A stretch of DNA of 35,112 nucleotides from a virus (IMGVR_UViG_3300050196_000027:1-35112); one strand, 5' to 3'. Shown: positions 2,354 to 34,828, numbered from the stretch's first letter. Notes: a model not told the origin generated them from the sequence alone. Numbers and translations are program-made.

Positions 2354-3055
2354 ATGCTTATCAATGCTGACGTAAAAGGACTTGAACTTGTAGCAGCAGC
2401 AGACCTTTCAAAAGACCCAATCTTAAGTCAAGAAATTATAAATAAGTTTGATACCCATGCTGATAATCAAGCTAGGTTTAACTTACCTGCAAGAGTAACT
2501 GCTAAGATTTTCGTCTTTAAACTACTATATGGTGGTAGTGACTATGGCTTCTCCATGGATGCAGACTTTCTGCACATGGGTTATAGTAGAAAACAGTGGG
2601 CAGAAGTAATTGAAGCTTTCTACACCAAGTATAAAGGTATCAAGAAATGGCACGATAGTCTACTTGAAACTGCCATGCGGCAGGGATACATAGAAATCCC
2701 TAGTGGCCGCTATTTCAACTTTAGACCCACTAATGGTAGGTGGCCCATTACTACTATTAAGAACTACCCAGTTCAAGGTTGGGGTGCCGACCTGGTGATG
2801 TTGGCTCGTATTGAGCTTATGAGGAGACTAAGAGAGTCTGACATTGAGGCAAAATTTATTTGTACTGTCCACGACTCTTTAGTAGTTGACACACTAGAGA
2901 AAAATGTGTATACTATTAGTATGATGTTAAAAGAAAGCATTGAAGCAGTTCCATTGTTGTGTAAAAGCACCTTTGGGTATGCTATGCAGCTTCCTTTAAC
3001 TTGCGAAATTCAAGCCGGTCCCAATAAAAGGGATATGGAAGAAATTAAACTGTAA
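2354..3055 (+). CDS. polA: DNA polymerase family A, C-terminal part (palm/fingers)
   Basis: Motif A NADVKGLE, motif B RVTAKIFVFKLLYG, NYPVQG, motif C TVHDS. Confidence 0.92.
   Translation: MLINADVKGLELVAAADLSKDPILSQEIINKFDTHADNQARFNLPARVTAKIFVFKLLYGGSDYGFSMDADFLHMGYSRKQWAEVIEAFYTKYKGIKKWHDSLLETAMRQGYIEIPSGRYFNFRPTNGRWPITTIKNYPVQGWGADLVMLARIELMRRLRESDIEAKFICTVHDSLVVDTLEKNVYTISMMLKESIEAVPLLCKSTFGYAMQLPLTCEIQAGPNKRDMEEIKL
2886..2914 (+). promoter_or_regulatory. Sigma70-type promoter inside the polymerase CDS
   Basis: TTGACA (2886-2891), 17-bp spacer, TATACT (2909-2914); about 140 nt upstream of tRNA-Gly. Confidence 0.7.
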
Positions 3056-3056
3056 T

Positions 3057-3130
3057 GCGGGGTTGGCATATTGGTTGTGTCCTAGCCTTCCAAGCTAGTC
3101 AAGGGAGTTCGATTCTCCCACTCCGCTCCA
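3057..3130 (+). tRNA. tRNA-Gly (anticodon TCC)
   Basis: Acceptor stem GCGGGGT/ACTCCGC, anticodon arm CTAGC-CTTCCAA-GCTAG, T arm GGGAG-TTCGATT-CTCCC, encoded 3' TCCA. Confidence 0.95.
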
Positions 3131-29472: not shown

Positions 29473-29790
29473 TTATTCTCCAAATACGCAGATTACATCT
29501 TCATCATTAATAATGAGATATACAGTTTCATCTGCTGGGTCTTGTACAAATTTACCACCAAACTTAGCAAAACCAATGGTGTCACCAACTTTTGCATCCC
29601 CAATATAATCTTCATGACACTTAGGACCAATTTGTAGAATAGTTCCCTTATCTACATTGATTTGTTCCTTACGTTCCGAAAACTCTGGAAGAACAATACC
29701 TGCCTGCTTTGCAGCAGCAAATACCTTATCATGTTCTTGAATAGTGTTTGGCTTAATCAGGACTCTACATCCTGTTACTGAAATTGTCAT
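29473..29790 (-). CDS. GroES/Cpn10-like co-chaperonin
   Basis: RVLIKP, GIVLPE, GTILQIGP, KVGD.I.FAKFGG and YLIINDEDVI motifs. Confidence 0.85.
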   Translation of the reverse strand: MTISVTGCRVLIKPNTIQEHDKVFAAAKQAGIVLPEFSERKEQINVDKGTILQIGPKCHEDYIGDAKVGDTIGFAKFGGKFVQDPADETVYLIINDEDVICVFGE

Positions 29791-29984
29791 AGACCCTCCT
29801 CAAAGGAAATACCTAATACATCCCGAAGAGCAGCAATGTAACCTTGCCGATAGCGAAGTCCCTCTGCATCCACTGCAATTAGTTCTTCTTTGATATCTTC
29901 CACTCTTTGGGAAATTTCTGATTTAAAGAACCGAGTTACCGGACTTTCGTTCCACTCTTGGAACTCGTGTTTTGAGATTGTAAT
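29787..29984 (-). CDS. 65-aa hypothetical protein with probable ATT start, absent from the ORF track
   Basis: TAAGGAG, 8 nt, then ATT ACA ATC...; reads (M)TISKHEFQEWNESPVTRFF...YRQGYIAALRDVLGISFEEGL; ATGA overlap with the GroES-like gene. Confidence 0.65.
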   Translation of the reverse strand: MTISKHEFQEWNESPVTRFFKSEISQRVEDIKEELIAVDAEGLRYRQGYIAALRDVLGISFEEGL

Positions 29985-32023
29985 TTGATTTGCTCCTTAG
30001 CATGGGTTAATTTTTGCTCATGTGTTTGCTGTTGTTGTTGCAAGGATTGAGCCTGTTTAGCAGCTTCTGTAGCTAAGAACATTCTATTTTTAGCTAGCTC
30101 AGAAGCACTTTGAATAACGGAACTTTGCTGTGTTTCTTGCATATGTTGGGCATGTTCTTGAGCCTTCATAGCTAGTTGTAGCTGTGCATCCCGTCCTTTT
30201 AATTCCATATCTTGTTGTTTTGCAGCCATGTCCAATTGAGCCTTTTGTTGGTCTAGCTGACCCTTTTGTTGAATAGCTAGAAGTTTAGGATCAGGTGGTG
30301 CTGGTGGAACTTGTCCACTTTGCTGTACCTCTGCACTTAGAAGTTTTTGCCAATTTGGCTGTTCTTGTGCTTCTAAAATTCTAGAAATAACTTCAACTGG
30401 ATTCATAATTTGACCAAAAGCTTGTAAAAGTTCTGCAAGACCCATAGCTTTTTGTAATTTTTCTTGATTACTCACAGCGTTAGGATCAGCTCCTGGAAAA
30501 ATGTCATAAGTCGATAGATCAAAATCACTAGGATCAACTGTGTCGTCTAAAACTGCTACGTATTTCTGTGGATCAAGGTACATTTTATTAAGTTTAAATA
30601 TTTTTAAGAACTCTTGATCGAGACTTCTATAAATTCTCTTATAAACTGCAGTAAAGACTTTCATTCCTTGCTCAACTGTAGCCATTGTAGTAGTCGCTGG
30701 TGTATTTTGTCCTGGCATTTTACCAGTAAAAATTTCAGCAACGCTCGCAAGCTCTTTTCCAGAAGTAACAAGTGTTCCCATTAATTCAAAAAGAACATTA
30801 CTTGGCTCTTTAGCTGGTAATGGAACAATTTGTTTGCGTAAATCATCACCAGTAGCATTTACTGGTTTCCATTCTCCAGGAGCAAAGGAACTTCCACCCA
30901 TTTTAATCTTAAGGGCTTTACCAATAAAACCACTTTGAAGATTATTTAAGCTCCCTGAATCAATAAGCTGATTGATAAGACTATTAACAGCTTCATTAAT
31001 CGGACCCAAGAGTACCCCAAAACCAATATCATAGAAACTACCATCAGGATTTGGAACAAATCCAAACTTAGTATACATATGAATTGGATTGATTTTAGCA
31101 ACTTTTTTATCATCATCAGTAAGAACTACATCATCCCTTGTATGTCTACGGTAGATAGATAAAACTTTTCCTGTAGTATATTCAAAAGTTACAATTACAG
31201 GAGCTGGGTACTCATTTTCTTTTTCCCCATTAAGCTTTAAAAAGGTATGTTGTTCTACAAGAACATAAGGAAGTGTATCATCTGTAGAAGTATATCCATT
31301 AGAGTCTTCTAGCGGAACTGGATCACCTAAATCTACATTACGAAAAATCTTTAGTGCTTGGTTTTCCTGTAAGACACGCTTACTCATTTCAATAATTTCA
31401 GACATTCTGTCTGATGTTTCAAGACTTTTTGTCCAATAGTTTACTACAAAGTTTTTTGGAAGAATAAACTTAGAACAGACTTTATCTTCACTTCTATCAT
31501 ACCAAGTTTTCTTAAAGACACAGCCAACAATTGGTAGCATGGAGAGCATCTTATCCATGTCTTCTTCCCAACCATCCATTTCTTCAAGAAGTTGGTAAGA
31601 CATATACTTTGCAATACGCTGTCCCTTCTTAAATTTTTCTCCAGATGGATCGCTACCAATAATTTTAGCATTTACAAGTTTACCATTAGAAGGGACTAAA
31701 CTAGGATAGGCTCTAGCATTAAATTGCATAGCAGCCGTAGTTAAAAGAGGATATTTTACATTAGCAGCATTGGGCCAAGGATAACTTTTTTCTTCTCTAT
31801 GTTGATTAGCAAGTTTAATCCAAGTTTCTAATGCTTCTTCCCAATCTGCACGACTATTTAAATCAAGTTCAAATCCTTGCTTACAGTCTTGACCAATTTT
31901 AATTAAAACTTCATCAGAAAGAGTTTCAGCATAGTTCTTATTTAGGAAATTAATATCCTGTCCAGACTCCTCGTCCGGTGTTTGGACTTCCTGAGGATTC
32001 ATATTCAAGTTCATATTCTTCAT
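29936..32023 (-). CDS. Portal protein
   Basis: About 690 aa after TerL; YPWPNAANVKYPLL..AA.QF.ARAY and NQLIDSG.L.NLQ.GF motifs; Gln-rich helical C-terminus (P22-like barrel). Exact start uncertain. Confidence 0.85.
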   Translation of the reverse strand: MKNMNLNMNPQEVQTPDEESGQDINFLNKNYAETLSDEVLIKIGQDCKQGFELDLNSRADWEEALETWIKLANQHREEKSYPWPNAANVKYPLLTTAAMQFNARAYPSLVPSNGKLVNAKIIGSDPSGEKFKKGQRIAKYMSYQLLEEMDGWEEDMDKMLSMLPIVGCVFKKTWYDRSEDKVCSKFILPKNFVVNYWTKSLETSDRMSEIIEMSKRVLQENQALKIFRNVDLGDPVPLEDSNGYTSTDDTLPYVLVEQHTFLKLNGEKENEYPAPVIVTFEYTTGKVLSIYRRHTRDDVVLTDDDKKVAKINPIHMYTKFGFVPNPDGSFYDIGFGVLLGPINEAVNSLINQLIDSGSLNNLQSGFIGKALKIKMGGSSFAPGEWKPVNATGDDLRKQIVPLPAKEPSNVLFELMGTLVTSGKELASVAEIFTGKMPGQNTPATTTMATVEQGMKVFTAVYKRIYRSLDQEFLKIFKLNKMYLDPQKYVAVLDDTVDPSDFDLSTYDIFPGADPNAVSNQEKLQKAMGLAELLQAFGQIMNPVEVISRILEAQEQPNWQKLLSAEVQQSGQVPPAPPDPKLLAIQQKGQLDQQKAQLDMAAKQQDMELKGRDAQLQLAMKAQEHAQHMQETQQSSVIQSASELAKNRMFLATEAAKQAQSLQQQQQTHEQKLTHAKEQIKLQSQNTSSKSGTKVR

Positions 32024-33443
32024 CTTCCATTTCTTGTTGGGTTGGAGCTTCTACTAAACTATCTAACATCATACCAAGATATGCAAAAGCATCCACTTGG
32101 TCATCTTTAGTAGCTCTAGGAAACTTTGCTAGTTCATCTTCAAAAGCACCATACCAATCTCCGTGCTTATCAAATTTAATAGTATTTGCTCTCATACGAG
32201 CTTGAATTGACCTGGCCCGAGCCATCTTATCTTTACCCTTATGCTTCAACATAAGCATACTAGGATATACACCAGTTGCTAACATTTCTTCACGAAGGAA
32301 TGGGCCAATGGATTTAGATACTTGCATTTCTTCCAAACCAAAGAGTTCCGGATTATAAACACGTTGTAAAGAAATAATAGTATCTACAATTTCTCGACCG
32401 TCAAGTCTTTCTCTGATGACATTCCTAATTTGAATATTTTTATCCTCATCAATACCAGCTACAACAAAAACTGAGTAGTCAGCATTCTCTTCTTCCGAGA
32501 TTGCTAAATCTCCTGTAATATAGTAGTGTAAAGATTTCTTTTTATCTTCTGGAGTAAGAGCAATGAAATCATGTCTTTTAAAGAACGCAATAGTTTCATC
32601 AATCGGTTCATTTAAGATTTCTTGGGAATATACATCGGGAATACCACGAGCTGTATAATCCTCTTTCATAGCAATGAATTTTTCTTTTGTCCACATTTGG
32701 GGCCATAAGATTTCTGTAAAAGTCTCATTATGTGCTCTATATTTTACAGAAAGCCAAGCAGACTTTTTTTCACTCCACATTTTAAGTTCTGAAGTACGGG
32801 TCCACCTATCATGGTCTTTTGGCATTAAATTATTTAGAAAACTATCTTCATGAAGAATAGTTCCAACAATTCTAATGATACCTTTACTAGATAAACAAGG
32901 AAGACAAGCACCATAAAACCAGCGCTTAAATTTATCACGTCTATCTTTATTCATGACCATTTCATCATTCTCAAGGTCATCACCCATAATAAGGTCAGGA
33001 CGCTTATTATTCCATTTTAAACCCCGGAGCTTCTGTTCCGCCCCACGGGCTGTAATACGAAATAAATAACCGTCCTCACACAAAACAATTACATCGTCTT
33101 CAGTATCTTTAGTAAATTCTTTAATTTTAAAAAGAATTCGTAAGCGTTCATTATCTGCCAATTCCTTTTTGATATCTGCTAGGAATTGAGAAGCTTGGCT
33201 TACAGTATCAGAAATAAGAAGGGCATAGGACCTTTCTCTAAATACCATGCAAGCTAGTAAGTAAGTCAGTGTACAAGCTGTAGATTTAGCATGTCTACGT
33301 GGAGCAGCAATTGCAATTTGTGGGTTGTTACTGCAAAACATTGTCCACCATTCATAATGACATGCTGGGCTTTCCACAGCTCCGTCAAAGTTCTTTTGTA
33401 GGAGGGAAGAACTAAACCCAGCAATAACATCAGCAGTTAACAT
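31950..33443 (-). CDS. terL: Terminase large subunit
   Basis: Walker A APRRHAKST, Walker B LIMGDDLE, VGT coupling motif and nuclease acidic motifs GDLA and DDQVDA. Confidence 0.93.
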   Translation of the reverse strand: MLTADVIAGFSSSLLQKNFDGAVESPACHYEWWTMFCSNNPQIAIAAPRRHAKSTACTLTYLLACMVFRERSYALLISDTVSQASQFLADIKKELADNERLRILFKIKEFTKDTEDDVIVLCEDGYLFRITARGAEQKLRGLKWNNKRPDLIMGDDLENDEMVMNKDRRDKFKRWFYGACLPCLSSKGIIRIVGTILHEDSFLNNLMPKDHDRWTRTSELKMWSEKKSAWLSVKYRAHNETFTEILWPQMWTKEKFIAMKEDYTARGIPDVYSQEILNEPIDETIAFFKRHDFIALTPEDKKKSLHYYITGDLAISEEENADYSVFVVAGIDEDKNIQIRNVIRERLDGREIVDTIISLQRVYNPELFGLEEMQVSKSIGPFLREEMLATGVYPSMLMLKHKGKDKMARARSIQARMRANTIKFDKHGDWYGAFEDELAKFPRATKDDQVDAFAYLGMMLDSLVEAPTQQEMEDEEYELEYESSGSPNTGRGVWTGY

Positions 33444-33516
33444 GGTGCTCCCTAAATGAATCGAACACTTATCTCCGGACTACAAAACCGGAATAATACC
33501 ATTATACTAAAGGAGC
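33443..33516 (-). tRNA. tRNA-Thr (anticodon TGT)
   Basis: Minus strand GCTCCTT TA GTATAATGGTATTAT T CCGGT TTTGTAG TCCGG AGAT AAGTG TTCGATT CATTT AGGGAGC A CCA: full cloverleaf with encoded CCA. Confidence 0.88.
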
Positions 33517-33520
33517 TAGT

Positions 33521-33949
33521 TTAACTTGCAGTTCCCTGTTTCTTATCATATGACCGCATAGCACTAAGTCCTAAAAGACCAAATAGAGCTTGTAGAGTCA
33601 CTGTAGTATCAATTAAAGGAAAGGCACCAGAGTAATGAAGAAATACCATACATCCAAAACGAGCAAGGGGTTCAAGAATAGTAGCATAAGCAAAAGCAAC
33701 ACCACATACCCAAATAACAAAAGGCCTTCCTCTGGAAACGAATTTATCAGACGAGCCAGCATCAATTTTATTAACATCAATTTGTGCTTTTAATAGTTCC
33801 GTATCTGAGGCAAGTTTTGCAAGCTCACCATTTTGTTGTAGTTTAAAAAGTTCAATTTTAGCTTCTTGAGCTTTAGCAGGATCAGGAAAAATCTTATCGA
33901 GTACCTTTGATCCAAAGTCAAAAACACTACCAAGTCCAGTTAAGTCCAT
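33521..33949 (-). CDS. Holin (GTA 3TM holin-like)
   Basis: DKIFPDP, FVSRGRPFVIWVC and GLLGLSAMRSYDK motifs with hydrophobic helices. Confidence 0.8.
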   Translation of the reverse strand: MDLTGLGSVFDFGSKVLDKIFPDPAKAQEAKIELFKLQQNGELAKLASDTELLKAQIDVNKIDAGSSDKFVSRGRPFVIWVCGVAFAYATILEPLARFGCMVFLHYSGAFPLIDTTVTLQALFGLLGLSAMRSYDKKQGTAS

Positions 33950-34236
33950 TATTTTTTCCCATCATTACGTTTCATACTGCCATTTTTATTTCTAGAAAAA
34001 CTTCTATTTTGATGAGCAGATACTACACGTAAGTTACTTCTACTATTACCACCACCTTTAGAAAGAGCCCTTTTATGGTCTACATCTTTACCATCACCTT
34101 TATGTGCAAGCCCTGCTTTTTCCATAATGCGCCTTGCGGCGTTCTGCTCAGCACGCTTCTTTTTAACTTCTGGCTTAGATGTATATTGAGCTACTTCACG
34201 CTTGTAGTCCCGTTTACCATTTTTCATGAAGGGCAT
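33949..34236 (-). CDS. Small basic HNH-type protein
   Basis: DVDHKRALSKGGGNSRSNLRVVSAHQNRS. Confidence 0.75.
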   Translation of the reverse strand: MPFMKNGKRDYKREVAQYTSKPEVKKKRAEQNAARRIMEKAGLAHKGDGKDVDHKRALSKGGGNSRSNLRVVSAHQNRSFSRNKNGSMKRNDGKK

Positions 34237-34769
34237 TATTCTTCCTCAATTTCTTTTGATTCAACGTCTACAACGTCTTTAGTTTTCATTTTATGCCATT
34301 TGGCAAATTCTTTAGCTAGAGCAGAGAGGGTGTCTTTAATGGACTCTGAAACTTCGATCTGCTCATAAGATTCTTTTCGGTTCATATGTTGTCTTGTCAT
34401 CAGAGTATTAGCTACATTAGCAGTGTCTCTCATAGAAACTGGTCTTCGTACAAGTTCACCAGTTTTATTGTTTAGGACAAGTTCACCGTTTGTTAGTCTG
34501 TCTTCTATAGTTTCTAAAGATTTATCTACAATGATAGAGAGTTTAGAGTCAAGAACATTCTGTTGTTCTTGTCTAGCAACTAGTTCAAACTCTTTCCACC
34601 AATCTGTTTTACGCCATCTTTGGATGGTGTCATAGGGAATAGAAGTCATAGCAGAGACAAGTCTAAGGTTCCCTAAAGCTACAGCTTTAGAAACAACATC
34701 TTGTTTAACTTCAATAGAGTAGGCTCCTCCTGTTGAGACAGGATTAGCAATTATAATTTTATCAGACAT
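34236..34769 (-). CDS. Putative terminase small subunit
   Basis: N-terminal HTH-like segment (IPYDTIQRWRKTDWW); first gene of the packaging operon; TAAGGAG SD. Confidence 0.65.
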   Translation of the reverse strand: MSDKIIIANPVSTGGAYSIEVKQDVVSKAVALGNLRLVSAMTSIPYDTIQRWRKTDWWKEFELVARQEQQNVLDSKLSIIVDKSLETIEDRLTNGELVLNNKTGELVRRPVSMRDTANVANTLMTRQHMNRKESYEQIEVSESIKDTLSALAKEFAKWHKMKTKDVVDVESKEIEEE

Positions 34770-34799: not shown

Positions 34800-34828
34800 A
34801 TTATAACATACTTATTTAGAAAAGTCAA
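34800..34828 (-). promoter_or_regulatory. Sigma70 promoter for the structural operon
   Basis: TTGACT, 17-bp spacer, TATAAT with extended TG; about 30 nt upstream of the terS ATG. Confidence 0.85.

Follow-up and report, generated by a model that had tools for sequence, protein, structure and literature searches.

A tRNA-Thr gene overlaps the start codon of the terminase large-subunit gene in a phage late operon and may damp its translation

The tRNA-Thr gene and terL in the late operon

The DNA that we analyzed is a virus record of 35,112 bases, called the window throughout, with a CheckV completeness of 71%. Its plus strand carries helicase, family A polymerase, ribonucleotide reductase and thymidylate synthase genes, and its minus strand is a morphogenesis operon. 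There, the late genes run in the order sigma70-type site, putative terS, small HNH-like gene, holin, tRNA-Thr, terL and portal. The promoter-like site (34800..34828, -) is a consensus match only, agreeing with the sigma70-type consensus at 11/12 positions and having an extended -10. The putative terminase small subunit (34236..34769, -; 177 aa) is named from an ESM Atlas match to 'Terminase small subunit family' (0.97) and from its operon position, and has no Pfam match. It is followed by a small HNH/endonuclease-like ORF of 95 aa (33949..34236, -; phrog_4590, with weak matches to phrog_1035 and phrog_333), a holin of the GTA_holin_3TM family (33521..33949, -; phrog_3427, PF11351), a 4-nt spacer from the holin stop to G1 of the tRNA (33517..33520, -), the tRNA-Thr(UGU) gene with its encoded CCA (33443..33516, -) and the gene for a terminase large subunit of 497 aa (31950..33443, -; phrog_38, E 1e-76; Pfam Terminase_6C). 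The portal ORF (29936..32023, -) starts within the 3' end of terL, with three ATGs 53-74 nt inside it (31950-32023), and a GroES-like gene (29473-29790, -), annotated in MW202796 too, lies after portal. In the annotated phage set, the TerL relatives come from a Manatee Spring phage (48%) and an Alcaligenes phage (54%, with 77% of the length covered).

The tRNA-Thr and terL lie on one strand, and between the promoter-like site at 34828 and the terL start we found no terminator-like site and, as further promoters, only weak 9/12 matches. Judged from the sequence, the 34800..34828 site likely drives terS, the HNH-like gene, the holin, the tRNA and terL, and the arrangement appears to have the features of a tRNA-mRNA polycistronic operon. 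We assume that the host is a proteobacterium with RNase E. On the other strand, the family A DNA polymerase consists of two abutting ORFs (1160-2353 and 2354-3055, +), a stop followed directly by an ATG; both match consecutive parts of phrog_17, with no insert separating them. One nucleotide past the polymerase stop begins a tRNA-Gly(UCC) gene (3057-3130, +) with a strong T-arm, which serves as an in-genome control; its end lies 13 nt from the next ATG, and that ATG has its own SD.

The tRNA-Thr(tgt) was called by ARAGORN at 33443-33516 on the minus strand, and it matches Rfam RF00005 at 54.3 bits (E 3.7e-9, cut-off 29, model positions 1-71). Threonine identity is conferred by the G35-U36 anticodon together with the G1-C72 and C2-G71 pairs, and all of these are present in the window tRNA, which also has a U31.U39 mismatch and G38. 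Among 16 clade tRNA-Thr, covariation extends over all four stems (92% of cells paired; two-sided changes in 17/21 pairs), and G1-C72 and C2-G71 are invariant; this alignment was chosen by anticodon, so that invariance of the anticodon holds by construction. Pair 31-39 is open in 13/16, and 11/16 have G or C at position 38 (window 33472-33488, -), unusual features that might influence modification or help the tRNA to escape an anticodon nuclease. Cultured phages, too, have annotated tRNA-Thr genes of a similar kind. An integration site, with attP in the tRNA gene, was considered and rejected, tyrosine integrase PF00589 being absent from 3/3 relatives searched, 2 of them complete.

The minus-strand sequence across the junction is AGGGAGC-A-CCA-TG-TTA, in which the base at 33443 serves as A76 of the tRNA and also as the A of the terL ATG (33441..33443, -). 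The initial annotation had claimed this sharing of the last A of CCA with the start codon, and ARAGORN, Rfam and a reading of the sequence agree that it is real. The N-terminus that it gave for TerL, MLTADVI, aligned with the starts of 11/11 homologues and is confirmed. Residues L15, D20, H29 and W33 are invariant among the aligned homologues; the downstream starts V23 (GTG) and M35 are not conserved, and we rejected them because they would cut off invariant residues. The acceptor-stem 3' strand, AGGGAGC (33447..33453, -), holds GGGAG at 33448-33452. That this is the only SD-like sequence of terL held true, and the spacing of 5 nt given with it did not: the spacer is 4 nt, with the motif ending at -5. 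Counted from the GG[A/G] core, spacing is 5-6 nt for terL and 5-9 nt in 17/18 other window genes, which were picked for clear starts. Against an E. coli-type anti-SD, the acceptor 3' strand pairs at -8.1 kcal/mol.

The junction is not an assembly artefact: contigs from 4/4 runs, the possible source run excluded, span it without a difference there. The chance of TG after any CCA is about 1 in 16, and the CCA/ATG overlap by itself is weak evidence. It goes beyond chance because it recurs at the true start of two other TerL loci, L373 and L260. A lack of such overlaps in relatives had been named as grounds for giving up the initial interpretation; L373 and L260 do show the overlap, and this check did not refute it.

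tRNAs next to terL among relatives

We gathered relatives by protein searches of three collections (the best 80 being kept in the two large scans) and by three tRNA-anchored DNA patterns, the first of which gave true terL starts in 15/44 cases and the others 5 and 2 further loci. Loci below 38% identity or lacking the N-terminus were excluded, as were 3 with no callable start; the 202 loci with a called start collapsed to 156 at 95% protein identity. T-loop and CCA were found near the start in 30 loci, and the addition of L189 (by hand) and L373 brought this to 32. Among the matches listed, 22 protein-found loci, the window included, have an adjacent tRNA and 122 have none; loci found by DNA pattern were selected for a tRNA and are uninformative on prevalence. 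The tRNAs before terL include Thr, Trp, Gly, His, Ser, Glu, Asn and Met isotypes. At the same place, endonuclease VII-like genes are inserted at the terL start in 3/115 loci (L130, identical to L371; L032; L041). The junction is an insertion hot spot for tRNAs and endonuclease VII-like genes.

The gap from CCA to the start codon is bimodal in the 32 non-redundant loci: 13 lie at -1 to 5 nt, 19 at 8-18 nt and none at 6-7 nt. Isotypes vary at the short gaps too (Thr, Trp, Met, degenerate). Short gaps precede terL in 13/32 cases and other genes in 1/26 (p 0.001, uncorrected for relatedness). A tRNA before another protein gene has a long gap in 10/10 clade cases, the window tRNA-Gly included, and an independent tRNA-Thr scan (119 loci, 93 non-redundant, 3 with too little flank) found a long gap before other genes in 15/16 cases, L335 being scored long with an ATG at +14 that has its own SD. 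The single short gap not before terL, L370, has a 155-aa ORF 4 nt after the CCA of a tRNA-Thr, with no SD and an uncertain start; its 5-kb record holds no TerL. Of all the signs that the layout reduces expression, and that it is tolerated or favoured only before a gene whose product is sufficient in small amounts, this bias toward terL is the strongest.

Three loci have the exact CCA/ATG overlap: the window, L373 and L260. L373 has a tRNA-Thr with the acceptor strand AAGGAGC and a TerL 74% identical to that of the window over its full length; relative to the window, its D-, anticodon- and T-stems have diverged and the GGAGCACCATG junction is retained. Four runs compared with L373 gave no independent confirmation of its contig's junction. 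In L260 (TerL 54%), the tRNA is degenerate, with an 8-nt anticodon loop and no SD. A viral_contigs pattern for exact CCA-ATG-LTAD junctions gave 0 matches and missed both loci, L373 through a Ser third codon and L260 through a misfit of the T-loop-to-CCA distance or the junction. L373 also carries, at ~586-674, a long-arm element that scores low, is called with a CUA anticodon and overlaps the 5' end of its tRNA-Thr.

On the tree, the window and L373 fall in one well-supported 4-member clade in which L373 is sister to the window, L031 and L032. The last two, the closest relatives, are without the tRNA: in L031 the holin reaches terL and a separate SD serves the terL start, and L032 has an inserted endonuclease gene. 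The sister clade (L121, L307) has the same type of tRNA-Thr, a spacer of 12-16 nt and its own SD, in keeping with loss of the spacer. The overlap may most simply have arisen by spacer deletion, or it may have arisen twice. Another Thr lineage (L112, L124, L128, L244 and, more distantly, L147 and L148), in which gaps are 0-3 nt and most starts are TTG or GTG, is scattered over a large clade. Across 31 loci, short and long gaps interchange at least 5 times on the tree.

The acceptor strand, the start region and predicted folding

An SD-like run of -3.2 kcal/mol or better is present in 18/19 long spacers (-4 or better in 14/19), which indicates that, where a tRNA breaks its coupling to the gene upstream, terL usually requires an SD. 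In tRNA-less loci, the upstream stop overlaps or abuts the terL start in 81/122 among the matches listed. A short gap of -1 to 5 nt leaves no room for a separate SD. There, the acceptor strand itself is SD-like more often, in 9/13 short-gap vs 5/19 long-gap loci (Fisher p 0.03, uncorrected), and in the 8 Thr short gaps (-1 to 3 nt) the acceptor GG core lies ~5-9 nt from the start, the range of the window phage's own genes. Four of the 13 short-gap loci have no SD (L260, L226, L147, L221). TTG and GTG starts depend on an SD, and they occur in 5/13 short-gap vs 0/19 long-gap loci, all five among the 8 Thr short-gap loci; by automatic calls, non-ATG starts occur in 24/122 tRNA-less loci too, among the matches listed. 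Tests on independent pairs gave no significance for SD, Thr or non-ATG start, and with only 4 such pairs significance was unreachable for these associations.

In L130 (2091-2494), the endonuclease VII-like gene opens with a tRNA-Thr tail, a TTG and MELTAD, a duplicate of the terL N-terminus, and has a frameshift within a run of A; that the insert starts at the tRNA tail suggests that the tail works as a start region. Collectively, these indirect signs point to use of the tRNA tail as an RBS in the Thr loci. The acceptors of internal or long-gap tRNA-Thr are equally SD-like, those of internal ones reaching -5.6 to -9.4. Since an SD-like acceptor is general to tRNA-Thr, it did not evolve for the RBS role; as read from these sequences, the SD would be a by-product of Thr identity that permitted loss of the spacer, not an adaptation. 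A further such sign may be L033, which has at ~1370-1386 a stop and then a tRNA-Thr-like GGGG..CCA-TTG end with no tRNA called, possibly a tRNA remnant retained as an RBS, though it could be chance.

If the tRNA folds, then the SD of terL should be masked. Pairing is predicted for the SD bases (unpaired probability 0.00-0.16, so paired at 84% or more), which supports the earlier proposal that a folded cloverleaf hides the SD. The predicted energy for opening the window's terL start is high, at 12.7 kcal/mol, yet within the 0.8-13.0 of 16 other window genes (groES, 13.0), with a median of 8.2 for the 122 tRNA-less terL loci among the matches listed. Opening energies of short-gap (6.6-13.6) and long-gap (2.4-16.2) loci overlap, L373 is at 8.7, and the fold of the window region is no better than that of shuffles (z 0.90).

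The T-arm of the window tRNA (33454..33470, -), inside the presumed 30S footprint, is very weak, at a predicted -0.1 kcal/mol. Median T-arm energies are -0.6 kcal/mol for short-gap Thr (n=6, L148 unscored), several of which share ancestry, -3.7 for other Thr (n=9) and -4.35 for non-Thr (n=44). In 5/5 within-locus comparisons the short-gap Thr T-arm is the weakest of its own locus, and L124 and L373, at -0.1 and -1.5 kcal/mol, fit the trend. T-arms of -2.0 kcal/mol or weaker also occur in 19/85 tRNA-Thr not tied to terL, and the folding energy of the whole tRNA does not differ between short-gap and other Thr (p 0.11). The window and L373 share a predicted alternative hairpin (~33438-33474, - in the window) between the 5' side of the T-arm plus T-loop and the acceptor 3' end plus start region; it hides SD and AUG. 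When the acceptor 5' strand is held open in silico, GAGC of the SD and part of the start are still paired in this hairpin.

Readings of the tRNA/terL arrangement

We consider it probable, though well short of settled, that the spacer SD was lost, that the Thr acceptor strand became the terL RBS, and that folding and maturation damp TerL constitutively. A spacer with its own SD was likely deleted, after which the purine-rich acceptor 3' strand would be the only RBS of terL. A 30S subunit could bind the late transcript before it is cut, by opening up the T-arm and acceptor stem, the weak T-arm being predicted to breathe, or could catch the SD during transcription, before the long-range helix closes. 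In E. coli, RNase P makes the 5' end and RNase E cuts 1-3 nt after CCA (PMC2190699, PMC4191395). Processing of this type by the host RNase P and RNase E would free the tRNA and remove the SD and the A of AUG, bearing out the earlier argument that maturation would destroy the terL start. As a consequence, terL would be initiated only on uncut RNA, against the cloverleaf, and each transcript would offer only a short window for initiation. The further contention of the initial annotation, that a transcript yields either tRNA or TerL, is too strong, as the mRNA should be translatable before it is cut; a time window takes its place. TerL is needed in few copies, and this would be why the layout is tolerated or mildly favoured before terL and purged elsewhere. 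The tRNA would then be a fixed damper on terminase translation, not a regulated switch.

By analogy, the arrangement would work like a structure-occluded RBS in a mixed tRNA-mRNA operon. In lambda, nu1 and A are weakly translated terminase genes, and it is translation initiation that limits terminase in a late operon with strong transcription; unlike there, the occluder here is a separate RNA gene and not an mRNA hairpin or a poor SD. For the tufB operon, autoregulation was reportedly described by Brandis in 2016. A bacterial mixed tRNA-mRNA operon, thrU-tyrU-glyT-thrT-tufB (PMC6134099), resembles the window in that tRNAs, tRNA-Thr included, are co-transcribed ahead of a protein gene and cut by host nucleases, with regulation near the start of the coding sequence. 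Of the expression-raising mutations described there, all map to the start of tufB and none to a tRNA gene, whereas in the window phage the acceptor strand is the SD and CCA overlaps the start. Phage tRNAs have been discussed as counter-defence or codon supply in a source whose available part mentions neither tRNA-Thr nor terminase (PMC10264068). The set here is likewise small, with unusual anticodon-loop positions, and such roles account for keeping the tRNA but not for its abutting terL. In the literature that we searched (titles and abstract openings, with subscription journals thinly covered), no acceptor stem serving as an SD and no fusion of a tRNA to a terminase start came up.

In these phages, one RNA stretch would double as tRNA acceptor stem and Shine-Dalgarno sequence, a state reached several times in one clade and almost exclusively before terL. 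The loci form a natural series, with gaps from -1 to 18 nt, different isotypes, ATG, TTG or GTG starts and loss of the tRNA, for setting folding and RNase P/E against initiation, and the same series bears on whether phages need terminase held low. For annotators, the lesson is that a tRNA and a CDS may genuinely overlap at a start codon. If damping were conditional, DNA packaging would have a control point not described before.

An alternative that we regard as unlikely, yet worth weighing, is neutral packing, in which genome compaction made the tail an RBS without meaningful damping, because the SD is captured co-transcriptionally and processing is slow. The tight packing of tRNAs across the clade, the window tRNA-Gly at 1 nt past a stop among them, is as this reading expects, as are the overlapping opening energies of the two gap groups and the frequency with which terL does without an SD, only 36% of the 122 tRNA-less loci among the matches listed reaching -3.4 kcal/mol. 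It does not explain why short gaps are nearly confined to terL (13/32 vs 1/26) or why the gap distribution is bimodal, and the SD pairing predicted at 84% or more also counts against it. We give somewhat less credence to a wider proposal, that podovirus-like lytic phages of one clade have repeatedly recruited a tRNA as the terL initiation region, with host tRNA-processing nucleases timing or gating packaging and selection weakening the T-arm and start codon to tune output; TerL would be made per late transcript only until the tRNA is cut out, with ThrRS or tRNA-binding proteins possibly involved.

A regulated switch, in which the contest of folding and processing with initiation answers a signal (ribosomes ending on the holin, RNase P/E or a tRNA-binding host protein) and so times packaging, strikes us as improbable. 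Retention of the overlap between the window and L373, its origin with another tRNA in L260, the weak T-arms of short-gap Thr tRNAs and the alternative hairpin predicted in the window and L373 all count in its favour. However, we found no conserved input that would make a switch of it: the element upstream of the short-gap tRNA varies between holin, HNH gene and another tRNA. The coupling to the holin that the initial annotation proposed, with the holin stop 4 nt before G1 in the window, fares badly: the tRNA follows another tRNA, and not a stop codon, in 3/6 other readable short-gap Thr loci (L128, L244, L112), a tRNA-like insert occupies that place in L373, and the SD stays paired in silico with the acceptor 5' strand open. 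Such variation and pairing place the junction outside the class of holin translational coupling. Its proposal of a dedicated switch is likewise opposed by the 122 relatives with no adjacent tRNA among the matches listed, by the varying isotype, by the long spacer in 19/32 tRNA-adjacent loci and by the generality of SD-like acceptors in tRNA-Thr.

Less probable again is tRNA punctuation, by which excision yields a leaderless terL mRNA; in the window this needs a cut after the discriminator, with CCA re-added to the tRNA. All 5/5 non-Thr short-gap loci start with ATG, three of them with no SD, and a leaderless product is more plausible for the SD-less ATG loci. TTG and GTG are poor leaderless starts, yet they open terL in 5/8 Thr short-gap loci, where, unlike in mitochondrial punctuation, they point to SD-led initiation on uncut RNA; the window's other late genes, moreover, have clear SDs. 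In mitochondria, tRNAs abut or overlap starts and their excision sets mRNA ends, as here, but excision creates a translatable mRNA (PMC3471875), whereas canonical excision in the window phage would destroy SD and AUG. A cut at or 1-3 nt after CCA, the position given in PMC2190699, destroys the window AUG. Unless the cut falls after the discriminator, the terL junction lies outside mitochondrial-type punctuation.

L137 carries before terL a degenerate tRNA-like element with a truncated fold. Such elements at the same position in L260 and L137, along with the weak D- and T-arms of the window tRNA, could suggest a remnant kept only as RNA structure in the terL leader, producing no decoding tRNA, but this is highly improbable against the full-length Rfam match, the covariation of all four stems, the invariant G1-C72 and C2-G71 and the similar tRNA-Thr genes annotated in cultured phages.
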